Of a stretch of DNA of 5,712 bases, positions 2,634-5,712 are shown piece by piece. The notes under the pieces were generated by a model, which made no database searches, was not told the DNA's origin, and worked only from the letters and a program-made list of their open reading frames with translations. The stretch covers positions 1 to 5,712 of IMG/VR virus record IMGVR_UViG_3300045988_000103. The stretch is one strand, 5' to 3'. Origin of the DNA: a virus. The position numbers and the translations under genes are program-made. Each line of letters opens with the position of its first letter. Position 1 is the stretch's first letter.

Positions 2634-2644
2634 CGGTGTCACCT

Positions 2645-2680
2645 AGCCCAGTACCTATCAAGTAAGGTACTGGGCTTTTG
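2645..2680 (+). terminator. Rho-independent terminator after VP4
   Basis: A perfect 11-bp stem, agcccagtacc (2645-2655) with ggtactgggct (2666-2676), has a 10-nt loop and runs into tttt (2676-2679). It begins 12 nt after the VP4 stop. Confidence 0.75.
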
Positions 2681-2700
2681 TCGCCTAAAGGCTCCATGTA

Positions 2701-2718
2701 TCAGTCTATTCAGTCTAT
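2701..2718. repeat. Tandem 9-mer tcagtctat x2, with a degenerate third copy aatctat at 2724-2730
   Basis: Direct reading: tcagtctat tcagtctat caaat aatctat. Confidence 0.9.
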
Positions 2719-2731
2719 CAAATAATCTATA

Positions 2732-2781
2732 ACGCACATGCGCACACGCGCGATAGCGCGCACGCGCGCACGCGCGATATA
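2732..2781. repeat. GC-rich alternating purine/pyrimidine block (two 21-nt CG/CA runs, each ending in ata), with internal 8-mer tandem gcgcgcac x2.6
   Basis: 2732-2752 acgcacatgcgcacacgcgcg and 2756-2776 gcgcgcacgcgcgcacgcgcg are strictly alternating Pu/Py. cacgcgcgata occurs at 2745-2755 and 2769-2779. The block is self-complementary (multiple CGCGCG registers) and sits in an otherwise A-rich genome. Confidence 0.9.
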
Positions 2782-2795
2782 ATATTAACTTGTTG

Positions 2796-2810
2796 TAGTA
2801 GTAGTAGTAG
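2796..2810. repeat. (TAG)5 trinucleotide microsatellite
   Basis: ttg tag tag tag tag tag agg, read directly. Confidence 0.95.
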
Positions 2811-2814
2811 AGGC

Positions 2815-2989
2815 TGTGGAAAAGTTGAAAAGTAATAAATTTTAACGATGAAACGAAAATTAAAAGAGAAATACACTGTTGAAAGTTTTGTTGAAAACTT
2901 GTTGAAATGTTGAAAGTTCGTCAAAATGACGAAAATCATTGTGCAACATTTTGTGGAAAACCTGTTGAAAGTGTTGAAAGTGTTGAAAA
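2815..2989 (+). repeat. Array of ten same-orientation TGT(T/G)GAAA iteron-like repeats (candidate protein-binding sites, DnaA-box-like on the complementary strand)
   Basis: TGTGGAAAA is at 2815 and 2952. (A)GTTGAAAA is at 2823. TGTTGAAA is at 2877, 2889, 2900, 2908, 2963, 2972 and 2981. Spacings within clusters are 8-12 nt. I did not see the exact 8-mer TGTTGAAA anywhere else in the window. Confidence 0.85.
2922..2953. other. Inverted repeat between the two main iteron clusters, with a nested mini-hairpin
   Basis: caaaatg (2922-2928) pairs with cattttg (2947-2953), a 7-bp stem with an 18-nt loop. An alternative 5-bp hairpin is cgtca aaa tgacg (2919-2931). Confidence 0.5.
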
Positions 2990-2996
2990 CGCGCAC

Positions 2997-3037
2997 AGCG
3001 CTAAAAAGGAATGGATTAAGCCGCATTCCGCTGCGCT
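2997..3037 (+). other. Compound stem-loop, a candidate ssDNA structural element
   Basis: The outer stem is agcgc (2997-3001) with gcgct (3033-3037). The inner stem is ggaatg (3008-3013) with cattcc (3024-3029), with a 10-nt loop. Confidence 0.55.
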
Positions 3038-3048
3038 CCATACGGCAA

Positions 3049-3062
3049 GGCGCTAAAGCGCC
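3049..3062 (+). other. Short GC hairpin ggcgc-taaa-gcgcc
   Basis: A 5-bp perfect stem with a 4-nt loop, read directly. Confidence 0.5.
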
Positions 3063-3118
3063 ACTCAAAACAAAGGAGCAGGAAAAAAGTTACAAATTAT
3101 TACAATACTCAAAAAATA

Positions 3119-3147
3119 TTGAAAAAGCTATTGACACAGGGTAGAAT
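3119..3147 (+). promoter_or_regulatory. Sigma70-like promoter candidate driving the peptidase-to-VP1 gene block
   Basis: The -35 is TTGAAA (3119-3124), the spacer is 17 nt, and the -10 is TAGAAT (3142-3147). It is preceded by an A-rich UP-like tract and lies 45 nt upstream of the first downstream ATG (3192). The host sigma specificity is unknown. Confidence 0.45.
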
Positions 3148-3191
3148 AGAATTGAACCTAACGAACATGACCGAGAGAAAGGTTGACAAAA

Positions 3192-3581
3192 ATGATTAAA
3201 AGCTACATAATGGACACAGACGCAAACGAAAAAGTAGGGCAGCACTTCAAAGTGCGAGAATTTGCGTGCAAAGATGGTTCGCAAGTCGTATTCATCGATA
3301 GCTATTTAGTATCAATCCTGGATATCCTTAGAAACCAAGTCGGAAAACCGGTATACATAAACAGCGGATACAGGACCCCGACAAGGAATAAAGAAGTAGG
3401 CGGTGCAAAGTACTCATACCACATGCGAGGAATGGCGGCAGACATTCGGATTGAAGGCATGACCGCAAAAGAAATTGCCAACAAACTGAACAAAATCATT
3501 CCGTCTGGCTGCGGCATCATCGTGTACAAAACATGGGTACACATTGACACGCGTACCAAAACCTACAGAAAGGGGGTATAA
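3192..3581 (+). CDS. Peptidase M15 family zinc D-Ala-D-Ala carboxypeptidase / endolysin-like cell-wall hydrolase (Peptidase_M15_3-like), 129 aa from ATG 3192
   Basis: The motif layout is F.V.EF.C.....V........L..LR...G.PV.I.SGYR.P..N..VGG...S.H..G.AADI......VHID.R. The predicted Zn ligands are His (SYH), Asp (AADI) and His (VHID). The SD gagaaagg (3175-3182) lies 9 nt before ATG 3192. The track start at 3183 is a TTG lying between the SD and the ATG. Confidence 0.85.
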   Translation: MIKSYIMDTDANEKVGQHFKVREFACKDGSQVVFIDSYLVSILDILRNQVGKPVYINSGYRTPTRNKEVGGAKYSYHMRGMAADIRIEGMTAKEIANKLNKIIPSGCGIIVYKTWVHIDTRTKTYRKGV

Positions 3582-3582
3582 C

Positions 3583-3705
3583 ATGGCACTTATTTCAATT
3601 AAGGACGTCAAACAGGCAATTCGTATCATGATGCAGATTCTGGAAAAACTTGACGAAATCTATCATGCACTGCACGATAGCATCAACGAAAAAGAAAAGG
3701 AGTAA
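3583..3705 (+). CDS. Hypothetical 40-aa protein (MALISIKDVKQAIRIMMQILEKLDEIYHALHDSINEKEKE), not in the ORF track
   Basis: ATG 3583 is 1 nt after the peptidase stop. The SD aagggggt (3570-3577) lies 5 nt upstream. The stop TAA at 3703-3705 is 3 nt before the next ATG, so the ORF fills the gap exactly. The product looks like an amphipathic helix with no TM segment. Confidence 0.45.
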   Translation: MALISIKDVKQAIRIMMQILEKLDEIYHALHDSINEKEKE

Positions 3706-3708
3706 AAA

Positions 3709-3936
3709 ATGACAAGGACAAGCTGGAATGTCAGAGACAGCACTACAGATGCATTGGAAGAGCTACTCGCTCGAAAATACAAAGAAATTGATAAAGAATA
3801 CAAAATGTTACGCAAAGTATCCAATATTGAAGATGCGAAGAAACTGCTAAATGAAATATGGCAGATGAAAAGCTTTGCAAACGCAATCGAGATGGAACTA
3901 ACGAGAAGGGAGTACGAAGATGGCACAACATCGTAA
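3709..3936 (+). CDS. Hypothetical 75-aa helical, charged protein of unknown function
   Basis: The SD aaaggag (3696-3702) lies 6 nt before ATG 3709. It is on the same strand and tightly packed with its neighbours. I recognise no motif. Confidence 0.6.
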   Translation: MTRTSWNVRDSTTDALEELLARKYKEIDKEYKMLRKVSNIEDAKKLLNEIWQMKSFANAIEMELTRREYEDGTTS

Positions 3937-4042
3937 GAAGATGAGCGGCGCAAAAGACCGCCGAATGTTCAACGTAACGGCACGAAAAACCAAAACAATC
4001 AACTTGAGCCAAAAGCCAATGCGGGGCGGCATCCGACTGTAA
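3920..4042 (+). CDS. Small basic DNA-binding/packaging protein (gokushovirus ORF8 / phiX174 J-like), 40 aa, not in the ORF track
   Basis: Translation is MAQHRKKMSGAKDRRMFNVTARKTKTINLSQKPMRGGIRL. It is Arg/Lys-rich and ends in PMRGGIRL, which I recall as typical of gokushovirus ORF8 proteins. The SD aagggag (3906-3912) lies 7 nt upstream. It overlaps the previous ORF by 17 nt. The stop is TAA at 4040-4042. Confidence 0.75.
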   Translation: MAQHRKKMSGAKDRRMFNVTARKTKTINLSQKPMRGGIRL

Positions 4043-4060
4043 GAGAGGAGAAAGAAAACA

Positions 4061-4300
4061 ATGGAACATCTGTATTATGGCATCTGGGACAACGTAGCAA
4101 AATGTTATGCATGGGTAGGTGAAAGCAAAAACAACGAAACGTTCGCACGGATGTGCAACGTGATGCAGAAAGACAAGAGCACGTTCATCGGGCAGTCCCC
4201 GAACGATTACGTAGGCTATAAACTGGCAACGTTTGAAGATGAAACCGGCGAATTCCAGAACATGAACGATAAGGCATGGGAGGGTAAAGCGGATGAATAA
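4061..4300 (+). CDS. VP5: VP5-like nonstructural protein (gokushovirus ORF5 family), 79 aa
   Basis: The pattern LYYGIWDNVA..Y........N...FARM............P.DY..YKLATFEDETGEF resembles the small ORF5/nonstructural proteins of gokushoviruses (..Y...D..A..........N...A.R.F........P.DY.L..LG.FD..TG.). The SD gaggag (4045-4050) lies 10 nt upstream. It sits immediately upstream of VP3. Confidence 0.65.
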   Translation: MEHLYYGIWDNVAKCYAWVGESKNNETFARMCNVMQKDKSTFIGQSPNDYVGYKLATFEDETGEFQNMNDKAWEGKADE

Positions 4301-4691
4301 ACGATACGAAGAGGGGCGCGAGCCCTTCTTTTCGAATCCAGGAGAAACAGAGCGAAAACAGTACGTCTGGGCAAAAGACAAAGAAGGCAAAGAATACCTG
4401 CAAGAAACCGAAAGTATCGACATTCAAGCAGAGATTGAAAGCTACGCAGATGAATGCGATATCAAAAACATTGTGAGAAAGGCAAGTTTCGACCCGGAAT
4501 TTATGAAAAGCCTGTCACAAGGCGCTATGGAAGGCACAGAGGTAGACATCACCGAATTTCCGAAGAATATCCACGAATATCATCAGATGGTAGCAACAGC
4601 ACAAGCTAACGCAATGAAGCTCAGAGAACTGGAAGAACTGAACAAAGAGCAGAAAAAAGAACCAGTAGAAGGGAGTAAAACAGAAGAATGA
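4293..4691 (+). CDS. VP3: VP3 internal scaffolding protein, 132 aa
   Basis: It sits directly upstream of VP1 with an ATGA overlap (4688-4691). It is acidic. The block DIQAEIESYADECDIKNIVRK followed by D.TEFP....E....V..A resembles the gokushovirus/Chlamydia-phage scaffold family. The SD ggagg (4279-4283) lies 9 nt upstream. It overlaps VP5 by 8 nt. Confidence 0.8.
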   Translation: MNKRYEEGREPFFSNPGETERKQYVWAKDKEGKEYLQETESIDIQAEIESYADECDIKNIVRKASFDPEFMKSLSQGAMEGTEVDITEFPKNIHEYHQMVATAQANAMKLRELEELNKEQKKEPVEGSKTEE

Positions 4692-5712
4692 ACAGAAACA
4701 ACGAACGACACTTTCTGCAAATTCCAGAAATGCACGCAAGCCGAACACGGTTCAACAGAGACCAAACGATTCTAACCACATTCGATAGTGGTAAGCTTAT
4801 CCCGTTCTTCGTAGATGAAGTACTGCCAGGCGATACCTTCCAAGTGGATACCAGCGCAATCATCCGCATGACCACACCAAAGTATCCGGTGATGGATGAT
4901 GCATTCATCGACTTCTACTACTTCTATTGTCCGAACCGTATCCTATGGGACAATTTCAAATATTTCATGGGAGAAGTGGAAGATACACCATGGATGCCGA
5001 CAAAAACGTACAGCGTACCGCAAATCGAAGTAAAAAGCACTGGAGAAAATCCAAGAGAAAAAACAATTCTAGACTACATGGGAGTGCCTACGAAAGTAAA
5101 AGGAAACTTCAAAGTAAACGCACTGCCTATCCGGGCATACGTAAAGATTTGGAACGAATACTTCCGAGATCAAAACGTAGGTAACGCGGCAACATCAAAA
5201 AATAATGATGGAAATGTCGTGTACACACGCAACAACGGAACAATGGAAAGCATCTTAAAGAATGCATACACCGGAGACGAATGCTTGCCCGTCAACCGTT
5301 TCCACGACTACTTCTCAAGCTGCCTTCCCTATGCTCAGCGTGGGCCGGATGTAAGCATACCCATGACCGGCAACGCAGCAGTAAACATTTTCGAAAACCA
5401 AGCGCTAACCCAAAAAAAGAGTACAAACGAAGAAATTTACCTAAACAGCCTAGTAACCGGAACAAACAGCGCAGAACCATTTATTGTAAACTGGCCAACA
5501 GAAGGAAACAAAAGCTACCCAGCACTGATAAACGGAGCAGCTACAACCAAAGGAACAACAGTAAGGGATGGATTTTTAGGGGTTGACCTAGGCACAGTAA
5601 CCGCGACCACCATTAACGAACTGCGAAACGCAATCGCGGTACAGCAGTACTATGAAGCGATGGCACGAGGTGGCAGCCGTTACCGTGAACAGGTACAGGC
5701 TCTGTGGAATGT
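4688..5712 (+). CDS. VP1: Major capsid protein VP1 (F-like), N-terminal 341 codons. It is open at the window end and continues at position 1/3.
   Basis: I translated this by hand with no stop from ATG 4688 to 5712: MNRNNERHFLQIPEMHASRTRFNRDQTILTTFDSGKLIPFFVDEVLPGDTFQVD...PKYPVMDDAFIDFYYFYCPNRILWDNF...ILDYMGVP...ALPIRAYVKIWNEYFRDQN...INELRNAIAVQQYYEAMARGGSRY. These are canonical microvirus capsid motifs. The last 18 codons are the same sequence as the ORF at 3-704. Confidence 0.95.
   Translation, partial: MNRNNERHFLQIPEMHASRTRFNRDQTILTTFDSGKLIPFFVDEVLPGDTFQVDTSAIIRMTTPKYPVMDDAFIDFYYFYCPNRILWDNFKYFMGEVEDTPWMPTKTYSVPQIEVKSTGENPREKTILDYMGVPTKVKGNFKVNALPIRAYVKIWNEYFRDQNVGNAATSKNNDGNVVYTRNNGTMESILKNAYTGDECLPVNRFHDYFSSCLPYAQRGPDVSIPMTGNAAVNIFENQALTQKKSTNEEIYLNSLVTGTNSAEPFIVNWPTEGNKSYPALINGAATTKGTTVRDGFLGVDLGTVTATTINELRNAIAVQQYYEAMARGGSRYREQVQALWN
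5658..5712. repeat. Right copy of the 55-nt terminal redundancy (identical to 1-55)
   Basis: Exact match to 1-55 by direct comparison. Confidence 0.97.

Follow-up and report, generated by a model that had tools for sequence, protein, structure and literature searches.

A predicted M15A zinc peptidase and probable endolysin in a gokushovirus genome without a recognisable holin

We analyzed a stretch of viral DNA of 5,712 nucleotides, here called the window, and found it to be a complete circular gokushovirus genome of 5657 nt with a 55-nt terminal duplication, in which the sole recognisable lysis-related function is a predicted M15A zinc peptidase of 129 amino acids. The explanation that we favor, and consider reasonably probable, is that this peptidase is a cytoplasmic endolysin, the captured half of a holin-endolysin cassette, released by a holin-free lysis step. 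Gokushoviruses rank among the commonest phages in the guts of mammals. To our knowledge, no gut gokushovirus lineage has been cultured and the mechanism of gokushovirus lysis has not been defined. Enterobacterial gokushoviruses have been booted from synthesised genomes (PMC7062461).

The M15 endolysin gene of gokushoviruses is real and has been known since 2012, when Roux et al. reported that gut Gokushovirinae carry M15_3 peptidases with an affinity to Faecalibacterium and put forward the endolysin hypothesis (PMC3394797), an observation restated by Kirchberger et al. in 2020 and 2022 (PMC7062461 and PMC9239249). GenBank relatives also carry the annotation 'peptidase M15', as in KX513876 (ARQ16041.1). 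A first-pass annotation of the window had mentioned M15-type genes as sporadically noted in metagenomic Microviridae, which is right and, set beside the 2012 description, understated. To that description we add a quantification of strong purifying selection, the clade-wide absence of a holin (67 of 73 genomes), the location of donor-type genes beside holin-like ORFs, and the exclusion of overprinted, antisense, and dedicated-partner explanations.

Results

The genome belongs to a described clade of gut gokushoviruses

VP1 (Phage_F), the VP2 pilot protein, the VP4 Rep protein, VP5, and a Chlamydia-phage-type scaffold protein VP3 were all identified in the genome (Pfam and PHROGs), along with a small basic VP8/J-like protein, all encoded on one strand. 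These are the proteins expected of Gokushovirinae, and the genome falls within the ~4.5-6 kb of their circular genomes. The nearest GenBank genomes are classed as Gokushovirinae, with the closest ~80% identical over the whole genome, and the genome is a new member of an already described clade.

The program-made ORF list placed an open reading frame at 3183-3581 (+) from a TTG, within which an ATG at 3192 yields the 129-amino-acid protein. Alignments with relatives begin at residue 1-2 of this protein. The gene and its upstream elements are as follows:

3192-3581 (stop included), + strand: peptidase coding sequence, predicted M15A (Peptidase_M15_3) zinc peptidase with a single catalytic domain, 129 aa (Pfam, phrog_894, AlphaFold, Foldseek, and dN/dS)
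3173-3182, + strand: Shine-Dalgarno-like purine-rich stretch GAGAGAAAGG, read from the sequence, ending 9 nt before the ATG
3119-3147, + strand: candidate sigma-70-like promoter, TTGAAA-17-TAGAAT, 45 nt upstream of the peptidase start (consensus scan, 10/12 matches)
2634-3191, no strand assigned: non-coding stretch separating VP4 from the peptidase gene, with DNA-level conservation, repeats, eight GTTGAAA iterons, and a terminator-like hairpin

GGAG or GGGAG also lies 6-8 nt upstream of most other genes in the genome. Because the upstream region as a whole was not enriched over shuffles, the promoter at 3119-3147 is only a candidate. The hairpin at 2645-2675 has a dG of -26.1 and a z of -6, and GTTGAAA, which occurs 8 times in the non-coding region against 1.07 expected, is kept in relatives; the region is probably a control region that drives expression of the peptidase. 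An ORF within it, orfU (2926-3144), was rejected as a gene: its dN/dS of 0.4-1.3 with a low dS of 0.09-0.43 therefore marks conserved non-coding DNA.

The gene product is a predicted M15A zinc peptidase under purifying selection

The peptidase matched Peptidase_M15_3 (PF08291) at an E value of 6.9e-23 and 81.3 bits, against a cut-off of 23.2, over residues 18-119, which correspond to profile positions 2-108 of 108. Peptidase_M15_2 was the second Pfam match (E 9e-09), and the PHROGs match was phrog_894, 'endolysin' (E 1.3e-41). The full motif set S58-G-Y-R61, N66, G70-G71, S75xH77xxG80xA82xD84, and W115xH117xD119 was found in the protein, and R61, N66, S75, H77, G80, A82, D84, H117, and D119 are invariant in alignment A1, which holds 51 sequences with homologues 39-60% identical. 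The catalytic elements map as follows:

3363-3374, + strand: S58-G-Y-R61 codons, with R61 the predicted substrate-carboxylate arginine (invariant in A1; aligns with R138 of 1LBU)
3414-3443, + strand: SxHxxGxAxD zinc motif, S75-Y-H77-M-R-G80-M-A82-A-D84, predicted to supply the first two metal ligands (motif residues invariant in A1)
3534-3548, + strand: W115-V-H117-I-D119 codons, the (W/F)xH motif, with the predicted third zinc ligand and a conserved acid (H117 and D119 invariant in A1)

The role given to R61 follows that of R47 in LysPM1 (PMC13461873), and the SxHxxGxAxD and (W/F)xH motifs are as defined for M15A phage endolysins (PMC13461873, PMC5025407).

Folding with AlphaFold gave a model with a pLDDT of 97.8 and a pTM of 0.90 that has the LAS/hedgehog-DD-peptidase fold. 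Its best Foldseek match was 1LBU (probability 1.00, E 2.7e-05, TM 0.61), followed by VanY, VanXYc, ChiX, Ply500, LysB4, and hedgehog N-domains. A sequence search of the PDB likewise returned 1LBU as best match (E 2.3e-05) and only chance matches past it; in the alignment, H154 and D161 of 1LBU take the places of H77 and D84. From HMM score, zinc motifs, and fold, the product of 3192-3581 is classified as a member of Pfam PF08291 and MEROPS M15A. The first-pass annotation had called an M15_3-type zinc peptidase with an H/D/H triad and proposed a profile search and a structure prediction as checks; the call stands, with a significant profile match, invariant motifs, and a model that matches the known zinc DD-peptidase 1LBU.

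Compared with 15 relatives, the peptidase showed a dN/dS of 0.06-0.13 at a dS of 0.55-2.9 and is under strong purifying selection. The gene is carried by 80 IMG/VR loci, and its protein falls into >120 clusters at 85-94% identity; most of the contigs that bear them measure ~5.7 kb or are shorter fragments. Relatives in GenBank are 87-91.5% identical to the peptidase, and those in IMG/VR reach 98%. Homologues of the protein number 14,245.

The genome encodes no recognisable holin, signal sequence, or overprinted lysis gene

With a 19-residue window and a Kyte-Doolittle (KD) threshold of 1.6 as the criterion for a transmembrane (TM) segment, no window at or above 1.6 was found in the three + frames of the whole genome with any start codon. 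The + strand maximum of 1.22 belongs to an internal helix of the peptidase, residues 35-53, in agreement with the first-pass observation that no + strand ORF contains a TM segment. A + strand window of TM grade was likewise absent from 67 of 73 related IMG/VR genomes. Neither a small TM gene adjoining the endolysin, as in a canonical holin-endolysin cassette, nor a small TM protein of the phiX174 E amurin type, typically overprinted, was found in the + frames of the genome.

No signal peptide or SAR segment (an N-terminal hydrophobic stretch of ~15-20 residues) was detected in the peptidase or across the clade. The N terminus, MIKSYIMDTDANEKVGQH, is hydrophilic, as had been noted earlier, and AlphaFold builds residues 2-6 into the globular domain as a strand (pLDDT 98).

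An overprinted lysis gene, one of the routes raised in the first-pass annotation, is excluded for this genome. No alternative-frame ORF of at least 20 aa starts within the peptidase gene, except for the start of the frame of orf40, no hydrophobic alternative-frame + strand ORF was found there or elsewhere, and dS of the peptidase is high (0.55-1.2). Antisense ORFs at 3743-4423 (226 aa), 2727-3068 (113 aa), and 3090-3284 (64 aa) were also rejected as genes. The two long ones are broken by stop codons in most relatives, and the 3090-3284 frame is mostly intact; dN/dS values were ~0.3-1.3, with one of 3.8, and the position of long antisense open stretches varies from genome to genome. On the T-rich minus strand, 281 windows of TM grade arise from composition alone. 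A complementary-strand ORF was noted by Roux et al. in 2012 (PMC3394797).

A 39-aa TM ORF at 5057-5176 of KT264793 was rejected as the holin of the clade, being present in that record alone. A small TM ORF is thus present in this close relative, and also in Dulem viruses 189 and 195, which are M15-bearing microviruses at a greater distance. A TM partner is therefore sometimes used, and in its absence some other mechanism could be at work here, a point against the endolysin explanation that we favor.

Downstream orphan genes are not specific to the peptidase

Two small ORFs follow the peptidase gene:

3583-3705, + strand: orf40, a 40-aa heptad-repeat helical protein, starting 2 nt past the peptidase stop (dN/dS 0.02-0.2)
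3709-3936, + strand: orf75, a 75-aa charged protein with a helical or coiled-coil look by eye (dN/dS 0.13-0.2)

Both are real genes. orf75 occurs in 26 microvirus records and had no above-threshold Pfam or PHROG match. Six gokushoviruses without the peptidase (L018-L023) retain orf40, orf8, VP5, and VP3 and have no recognisable lysis gene either; orf40 is 67-75% identical there, and a 68-aa ORF loosely resembles orf75 by eye, with no tblastn match. Because peptidase-less relatives carry orf40 and this loosely orf75-like ORF, we rejected the two as dedicated partners of the peptidase. The earlier suggestion of a partner among the downstream orphan ORFs thus holds insofar as these are genes and fails insofar as they were to be peptidase specific.

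A broader form of this idea, that the peptidase pairs with a non-canonical phage partner, either orf40 or surplus VP2, able to breach the membrane although it has no classical TM helix, seems to us unlikely. orf40 appears to be translationally coupled to the peptidase, with its Shine-Dalgarno sequence (AAGGGGG) inside the 3' end of the peptidase gene, and the second genome of L012, which represents another lineage, has an orf40 homologue immediately before the peptidase. It is also better conserved than VP1, which is 45% identical in the peptidase-less genomes, and its dN/dS is 0.02-0.04 against the nearest relatives. However, orf40 is equally present with and without the peptidase, gene adjacency weighs little in a 5.7-kb genome, and the protein is acidic (pI 5.6); since its maximum KD is 0.95, far under TM hydrophobicity, it is not a TM protein. 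VP2 might insert through its glycine-rich hydrophobic N terminus, which in the clade has a KD of 1.19-1.57 and GxxxG-like Gly/Ala small-residue repeats (for example, LLTALNIAGNVANTVGTIAGAAKNIGGALGG), although it is composition that links VP2 to lysis.

The peptidase gene was probably acquired from prophages of Clostridia

Among the 39 closest GTDB loci, 37 are from Firmicutes, mostly Oscillospiraceae/Faecalibacterium, and none is microviral. The closest cellular homologues, 40-50% identical, lie in Oscillospiraceae/Faecalibacterium prophages, and Faecalibacterium phage endolysins are 41-45% identical to the peptidase. A small TM (holin-like) ORF was present within 1.2 kb of the homologue in 31 of the 39 loci; in F. 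prausnitzii APC923/61-1, a 3-TM, 140-aa ORF lies directly downstream. Neither a close (>50%) copy of the peptidase nor a microviral context was found in any GTDB genome. By sequence affinity, the gene was horizontally acquired from prophages of Oscillospiraceae/Faecalibacterium-like Clostridia, in line with the horizontal acquisition proposed earlier. Because 31 of 39 prophage homologues adjoin TM ORFs and the microvirus copy does not, the microvirus appears to have kept the endolysin and not the holin.

Gut gokushovirus hosts have been predicted as Clostridiales (PMC10159846), and the Shine-Dalgarno-rich gene starts of the genome are consistent with a Firmicute host. From the affinity of the gene and this literature, the host is likely a monoderm member of the Clostridia of the Oscillospiraceae/Faecalibacterium type. 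An integrated prophage was rejected as host evidence: scaffold L013, in which a DUF2079 membrane-protein gene is joined to mid-VP1, is most likely a chimeric assembly, and L012 joins two different microvirus genomes.

Discussion

An endolysin role remains the best reading of the peptidase, considering its phrog_894 endolysin match and M15_3 family. Precedents are the lysis of permeabilised cells by single-domain M15A phage enzymes of like layout (LysPM1 and the ST79 peptidase) and the in vitro activity of Gp7 of microvirus Ebor. We propose that an ancestor of the gut gokushovirus clade captured the endolysin half of a cassette from a prophage of an Oscillospiraceae/Faecalibacterium-like Clostridia host and that the clade would have retained it, between VP4 and the small-gene cluster, as an accessory gene for lysis. 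The product would be an active, soluble, cytoplasmic M15A enzyme that cleaves peptidoglycan in its peptide stems or cross-links. It would build up in the cytoplasm late in infection and may meet the wall only once a basal gokushovirus lysis step breaches the membrane, whereupon it would dissolve the sacculus and speed or complete virion release. Such a basal step must exist in peptidase-less relatives too. That these relatives evidently lyse without a peptidase makes the enzyme dispensable in principle, which counts against the explanation. Its contribution would count most in a thick-walled monoderm host.

In the canonical model, a cytoplasmic endolysin without an exit is inert, which counts against the endolysin explanation that we favor. 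Host-dependent routes that need no holin have been described for some Gram-positive phage endolysins. The peptidase may use such a route to the wall, activated on collapse of the membrane potential, or may be released at cell death or autolysis; we give this a low probability. The lack of a signal or SAR segment in the clade, the rarity of TM-grade windows in its genomes, and the likely monoderm Clostridia host would suit it, and holin-independent endolysin export has a literature (for example, PMC8541568). Yet the N terminus of the peptidase is the same as in prophage homologues beside holin-like ORFs, which argues that it has no adaptation for autonomous export.

It is highly improbable that the peptidase is not lytic and instead remodels the wall at entry as a virion-associated enzyme or serves another role, such as superinfection exclusion. 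Entry was suggested in the first-pass annotation, and Gp7 of phage Ebor has been detected in virions, though only in trace. The peptidase, however, is a stand-alone soluble protein of 14.6 kDa with neither VP1 nor VP2 fused to it, related gokushoviruses manage infection in its absence, and its close non-microviral homologues all occur in contexts like lysis cassettes. We found no support for the entry role.

A more specific and quite improbable version combines the endolysin with a phage partner: a two-step, holin-free lysis of walled monoderm Clostridia in which a non-TM effector encoded among the core small genes, with orf40 as the best lead and otherwise VP2, first breaches the envelope and the captured cytoplasmic M15A endolysin then completes breakdown of the wall. 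If true, it would supply the long-missing lysis function of gokushoviruses and a new mode of endolysin release.

What our results sharpen is a testable question, how a cytoplasmic endolysin gets out, and not the existing picture. The ancestry of the peptidase is the best sequence clue to the host, pointing to Oscillospiraceae/Faecalibacterium-type Clostridia, and the enzyme could serve as a small lysin against Clostridia.

Comparison with known systems

The same gene occupies the same position, after VP4 and the non-coding region and before the small ORFs, VP5, and VP3, in the gut Gokushovirinae KX513876, MZ821031, KT264793, and the MG945xxx series, which differ from the window genome in sequence only. 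Endolysins of the Faecalibacterium phages FP_Toutatis, FP_oengus, Lelie, and Aster and of Oscillospiraceae/Clostridia prophages are 40-50% identical over 129 aa and share the N terminus of the peptidase, and several are bare catalytic domains of 129-147 aa. They lie in lysis cassettes of dsDNA tailed phages with TM holin-like ORFs, whereas the microvirus copy does not.

The zinc D-Ala-D-Ala carboxypeptidase of Streptomyces albus G (1LBU), the MEROPS M15A type enzyme, resembles the peptidase in catalytic fold and zinc site. This bacterial enzyme is secreted, carries an additional N-terminal domain, and is 21% identical to the peptidase, and its substrate specificity need not be that of the peptidase. 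LysPM1 (Proteus phage Homer), the peptidase M15A of Burkholderia phage ST79, and Spp64 are single Peptidase_M15_3 domains of 116-150 aa that share the SxHxxGxAxD and (W/F)xH motifs and have 1LBU as nearest structure. All three have been characterised experimentally as metal-dependent muralytic enzymes that act on permeabilised cells, with LysPM1 requiring Zn2+ (PMC13461873, PMC5025407). They come from tailed phages of Gram-negative hosts and are likened to the peptidase by layout; ST79 reportedly also has holin, lysB, and lysC genes.

Among microviruses, phiX174 protein E, an amurin that inhibits MraY, shares with the peptidase a presumed lysis function, but E is a small TM protein encoded by an overprinted gene and blocks synthesis of the wall non-enzymatically, whereas the peptidase is a predicted wall-degrading enzyme. 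Gp7 of Ebor ('Tainavirinae', Rhodobacter capsulatus) is an accessory microvirus peptidoglycan hydrolase that degrades peptidoglycan in vitro by zymogram, was found in trace amount in virions, and, according to its authors, is the first experimentally verified peptidoglycan hydrolase of an ssDNA phage (PMC11980548). Ebor belongs to another microvirus lineage with another host, the best HHpred match of Gp7 is 6SSC_A and not 1LBU, and Ebor encodes a predicted 45-aa membrane protein, Gp1, whereas the window genome encodes none.

Genome organization and relatives

Positions 1 to 55 of the window are identical to positions 5658 to 5712, and this 55-base terminal identity indicates that the window is a complete genome, 5657 nt long, that was assembled as a circle. 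The + strand carries every recognizable gene, and the genome is that of a typical gokushovirus:

4688 across the junction to 704, + strand: VP1, major capsid protein, 557 aa (Phage_F, E 8.5e-67, C-terminal part)
745-1617, + strand: VP2, pilot protein (phrog_8742, E 1e-118)
1614-2633, + strand: VP4, replication initiator
2634-3191: noncoding region between VP4 and the peptidase gene, 558 nt
3192-3581, + strand: peptidase, the ORF in question
3583-3705, + strand: orf40, small ORF
3709-3936, + strand: orf75, small ORF
3920-4042, + strand: orf8, basic 40-aa VP8/J-like protein (phrog_10695)
4061-4300, + strand: VP5 (Phage_ORF5)
4293-4691, + strand: VP3, scaffold protein (Chlamy_scaf)

The closest GenBank genomes, about 80% identical to the window, are 'Gokushovirus' or 'Microviridae sp.' records from human, pig, and monkey gut. 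Sample 3300045988 is the source of most of the closest relatives. The 5691-nt genome IMGVR_UViG_3300045988_000107 has an intergenic region that appears near-identical to that of the window (dS 0.013) and a peptidase 98% identical; the two probably represent one virus species. Genome IMGVR_UViG_3300045988_005607 (6683 nt) carries an additional 603-aa ORF at 96-1907 that is missing from the rest of the clade. In the 10.3-kb ERZ28660898 scaffold_2691, a bacterial DUF2079 membrane-protein gene (46-1509) is fused to mid-VP1, after which come about 1.6 copies of the genome of a related microvirus; a chimeric assembly is most likely and a prophage is disfavored.

The orf8 product, with a pI of 12, is probably a VP8/J-type DNA-binding packaging protein; its gene and the end of orf75 share 17 nt. 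It is conserved at 85 to 98% in near relatives and 56% in relatives that lack the peptidase.

Elements of the VP4-peptidase intergenic region

Directly 3' of the VP4 stop, a hairpin at 2645-2679 (+ strand; 12-bp perfect stem, dG -26.1 kcal/mol, z -6.05 versus shuffles) is followed by TTTT. The hairpin resembles an intrinsic terminator or an element with a structural role in the single-stranded DNA genome; it was absent from the output of a simple scan for terminators. Within surroundings that are AT-rich, a GC-rich repeat at 2729-2810 consists of 2.1 copies of a 24-nt unit, whose 8-nt building block was reported as CGCACACG/GCGCGCAC; after the repeat comes (GTA)x5. The heptamer GTTGAAA occurs eight times between 2824 and 2988 (165 nt), always on the + strand, versus 1.07 copies expected in the whole window; none of 200 shuffles reached eight. 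Most close relatives have a 5- to 10-copy cluster starting about 100 to 300 nt past the VP4 end, among them four of six peptidase-less relatives (L018, L019, L021, and L022), and more distant M15-bearing microviruses lack it. The copies may be origin iterons bound by Rep, or they may form a promoter array. The intergenic ORF at 2926-3144 was rejected as noncoding (dN/dS 0.4-1.3, low dS).

The peptidase is an intact M15A enzyme under selection

The first-pass annotation read the 129-aa product as an M15_3-type peptidase with an H/D/H zinc triad, and our profile and motif analyses confirmed this assignment. Peptidase_M15_3 covers the product over the full Pfam profile (E 6.9e-23; 81.3 bits versus a gathering score of 23.2), with a weaker match to the related Peptidase_M15_2 (YcbK/DUF882), and PHROG 894, 'endolysin', matches at E 1.3e-41. 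M15A phage endolysins are defined in the literature by two motifs, SxHxxGxAxD and (W/F)xH (PMC13461873, PMC5025407). Both are present, the first as S75-Y-H-M-R-G-M-A-A-D84 and the second as W115-V-H117, followed by D119. In an alignment of the query with 50 homologues 39 to 60% identical to it, F19, E23, F24, R47, R61, N66, S75, H77, G80, A82, D84, G108, H117, and D119 were invariant.

The sole significant match in a PDB sequence search was 1LBU, the Streptomyces albus G zinc D-Ala-D-Ala peptidase, whose H154, D161, and R138 align with H77, D84, and R61. An AlphaFold2 model built on the 50-homologue alignment (mean pLDDT 97.8, pTM 0.90) likewise retrieved 1LBU first in a Foldseek search of the PDB (probability 1.00, TM 0.61 on the query), with VanY, VanXYc, ChiX, Ply500, LysB4, LysECD7, and hedgehog N-terminal domains, together the LAS/MD clan, among later matches. 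Relatives in this clan include DD-carboxypeptidases, LD-endopeptidases, and L-Ala-D-Glu peptidases.

Compared with 15 relatives, the peptidase has a dN/dS of 0.06 to 0.13 at a dS of 0.55 to 2.9. In a protein search, over 120 clusters matched at 85 to 94% identity, most of them on contigs of about 5.6 to 5.9 kb or shorter fragments, and IMG/VR contains at least 172 relatives, with identities of 69 to 98% among the 80 loci retrieved. The clade is abundant, and its peptidase gene is stable and under selection.

The clade lacks an export signal and a holin

The peptidase N terminus has no hydrophobic stretch, and residues 2 to 6 form a strand of the domain in the model, so that both sequence and model bear out the earlier view that there is no signal peptide; an SAR segment is likewise absent. 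Hydrophobicity was scored as the Kyte-Doolittle mean (KD) over 19 residues, with 1.6 or above taken as transmembrane (TM) grade. No window in the three + frames reached 1.6, even with start codons ignored, which upholds the claim that the + strand has no TM-containing ORF. The peak value, 1.22, fell in a helix inside the peptidase, and the next, 1.19, in the glycine-rich VP2 N terminus. That the peptidase leaves by a host-dependent, holin-free route is unlikely.

Missing holins are general across the clade. The VP2 N terminus aside, 10 of 11 close GenBank relatives were free of + strand ORFs with a TM-grade segment, and 67 of 73 complete-size IMG/VR genomes had no such ORF of any kind; the six exceptions comprised one VP2 N terminus, one contig with extra nonmicroviral DNA, one unusual ORF of 603 aa, and three short ORFs in alternative frames that are not conserved. 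The close relative KT264793, whose peptidase is 91.5% identical, additionally carries a 39-aa ORF at 5057-5176 (product ITFLAIMFSMIACYAIIVGSVYLTIMMVDDIKKWRNEK), found in no other phage record. Its product has a clear TM helix (KD about 2.5) and a charged C terminus. This holin-like ORF is placed between orf8 and VP5 and shares 4 nt with the VP5 start. In Dulem viruses 189 and 195, more distant M15-bearing microviruses, TM proteins of 35 to 58 aa are annotated after VP2. A TM partner is thus occasional in microviruses but not a feature of the window's clade.

An overprinted gene, once proposed as an export route, is refuted: the peptidase gene carries no overprinted ORF and varies freely at synonymous sites. 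A makes up 38% of the + strand, and 281 TM-grade windows occur on the minus strand. Long antisense ORFs were rejected as compositional artifacts, their positions differing in each relative and their dN/dS being near 1; stops interrupt the two longest in most relatives. A 226-aa antisense ORF (3743-4423, - strand) spanning orf75, orf8, VP5, and the VP3 start has stops in several relatives and a dN/dS of 0.6 to 1.0, and is therefore not a gene but a consequence of the A richness of the coding strand.

Adjacent small genes are not peptidase specific

The downstream ORFs had been suggested as partners. Those next to the peptidase are real genes (dN/dS 0.02-0.2 for orf40, 0.02-0.04 versus near relatives; 0.13-0.2 for orf75); specificity for the peptidase did not hold. 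The orf40 start lies 2 nt past the peptidase stop, with its Shine-Dalgarno sequence within the peptidase 3' end. Its acidic 40-aa product, too low in hydrophobicity to span a membrane, matched nothing in Pfam or PHROG. By eye it shows a heptad pattern, with hydrophobic residues at regular 3-4 spacing (I6, V9, I13, M16, L20, L23, Y27, and L30), and an acidic tail. It is 67 to 75% identical in genomes whose VP1 is only 45 to 47% identical, making it the best-conserved protein of the lineage. These genomes are six gokushoviruses with no peptidase at all (L018-L023), so orf40 is a core gene of the lineage; we found in them neither a TM ORF nor a wall hydrolase. The VP2 N terminus (745-860, + strand) has a glycine/alanine-rich hydrophobic stretch (MGGLTGLLTALNIAGNVANTVGTIAGAAKNIGGALGG; KD up to 1.57 in relatives), the most hydrophobic + strand-encoded segment save the peptidase helix. 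We consider it improbable that orf40 or VP2 breaches the membrane for the peptidase as a non-TM partner.

Origin of the peptidase and host

A library at 50% identity contained 14,245 homologues, many joined to other domains. When GTDB was compared at one genome per species, 37 of the 39 closest loci (35 to 50% identical) were from Firmicutes, overwhelmingly Oscillospiraceae, Faecalibacterium, and other Clostridia, with one from Bacteroidales and one from Myxococcota. None carried a microviral VP1 or VP4. At least one small same-strand TM ORF lay within 1.2 kb in 31 of the 39; in the isolate genome of F. prausnitzii APC923/61-1, a 140-aa ORF with three TM segments is directly downstream. Endolysins of Faecalibacterium phages FP_Toutatis, FP_oengus, Lelie, and Aster are 40 to 45% identical. 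Prophage homologues, some equally short, have the same N terminus as the microviral peptidase (e.g., MSIKVYSKAKDGNEKLSTNFRVREFACKDG); together with the adjoining TM ORFs, this indicates that the microvirus acquired, by the horizontal transfer envisaged earlier, an ordinary cytoplasmic endolysin without its holin. The peptidase thus derives from Clostridia prophage lysis cassettes. A role at entry, or another nonlysis role, is highly improbable.

We infer a Clostridiales host, which agrees with published host prediction for gut gokushoviruses (PMC10159846). The GGAG/GGGAG ribosome-binding sites preceding most window genes are consistent with this.

Discussion

Our analyses show an intact, selected M15A peptidoglycan peptidase, of predicted activity, without an export signal and in a genome without a holin, and support the endolysin interpretation as a whole. 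Peptidase-less genomes imply that the lineage has a basal lysis route of its own, to which the peptidase is an addition. Late in infection the peptidase would accumulate in the cytoplasm, reach the wall once the basal step common to peptidase-less relatives compromised the membrane, and then dissolve the sacculus, with greatest use in a thick-walled monoderm host. A non-TM partner, host-dependent export, and a role at entry or outside lysis draw at most on adjacency or composition for positive support. Clade-wide holin absence, holins in donor cassettes, the lack of overprinted or antisense genes, and adjacent small genes that are not peptidase specific narrow a genuine and experimentally approachable question: how a signal-less endolysin gets out in a genome without a membrane protein.

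The first-pass annotation mentioned sporadic M15 genes in metagenomic Microviridae, and the literature bears this out. Roux et al. (2012) described genes for M15_3 peptidases in 11 Microviridae associated with humans, including five Gokushovirinae; four of the gokushoviral genes grouped with Faecalibacterium, and holin genes adjoined the homologues in bacteria. They suggested that the enzymes act as endolysins and that the hosts are Gram-positive (PMC3394797). Kirchberger et al. (2022) treated peptidases as lysis-associated accessory genes exchanged between microvirus families (PMC9239249), and GenBank relatives are annotated 'peptidase M15' or 'similar to peptidase'. Our observation thus repeats what had been described before, and the window is one more genome of a described clade. 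Single-domain M15A endolysins of tailed phages have likewise been characterized (PMC13461873, PMC5025407), and in vitro activity has been shown for Ebor Gp7, the peptidoglycan hydrolase of another microvirus (PMC11980548).
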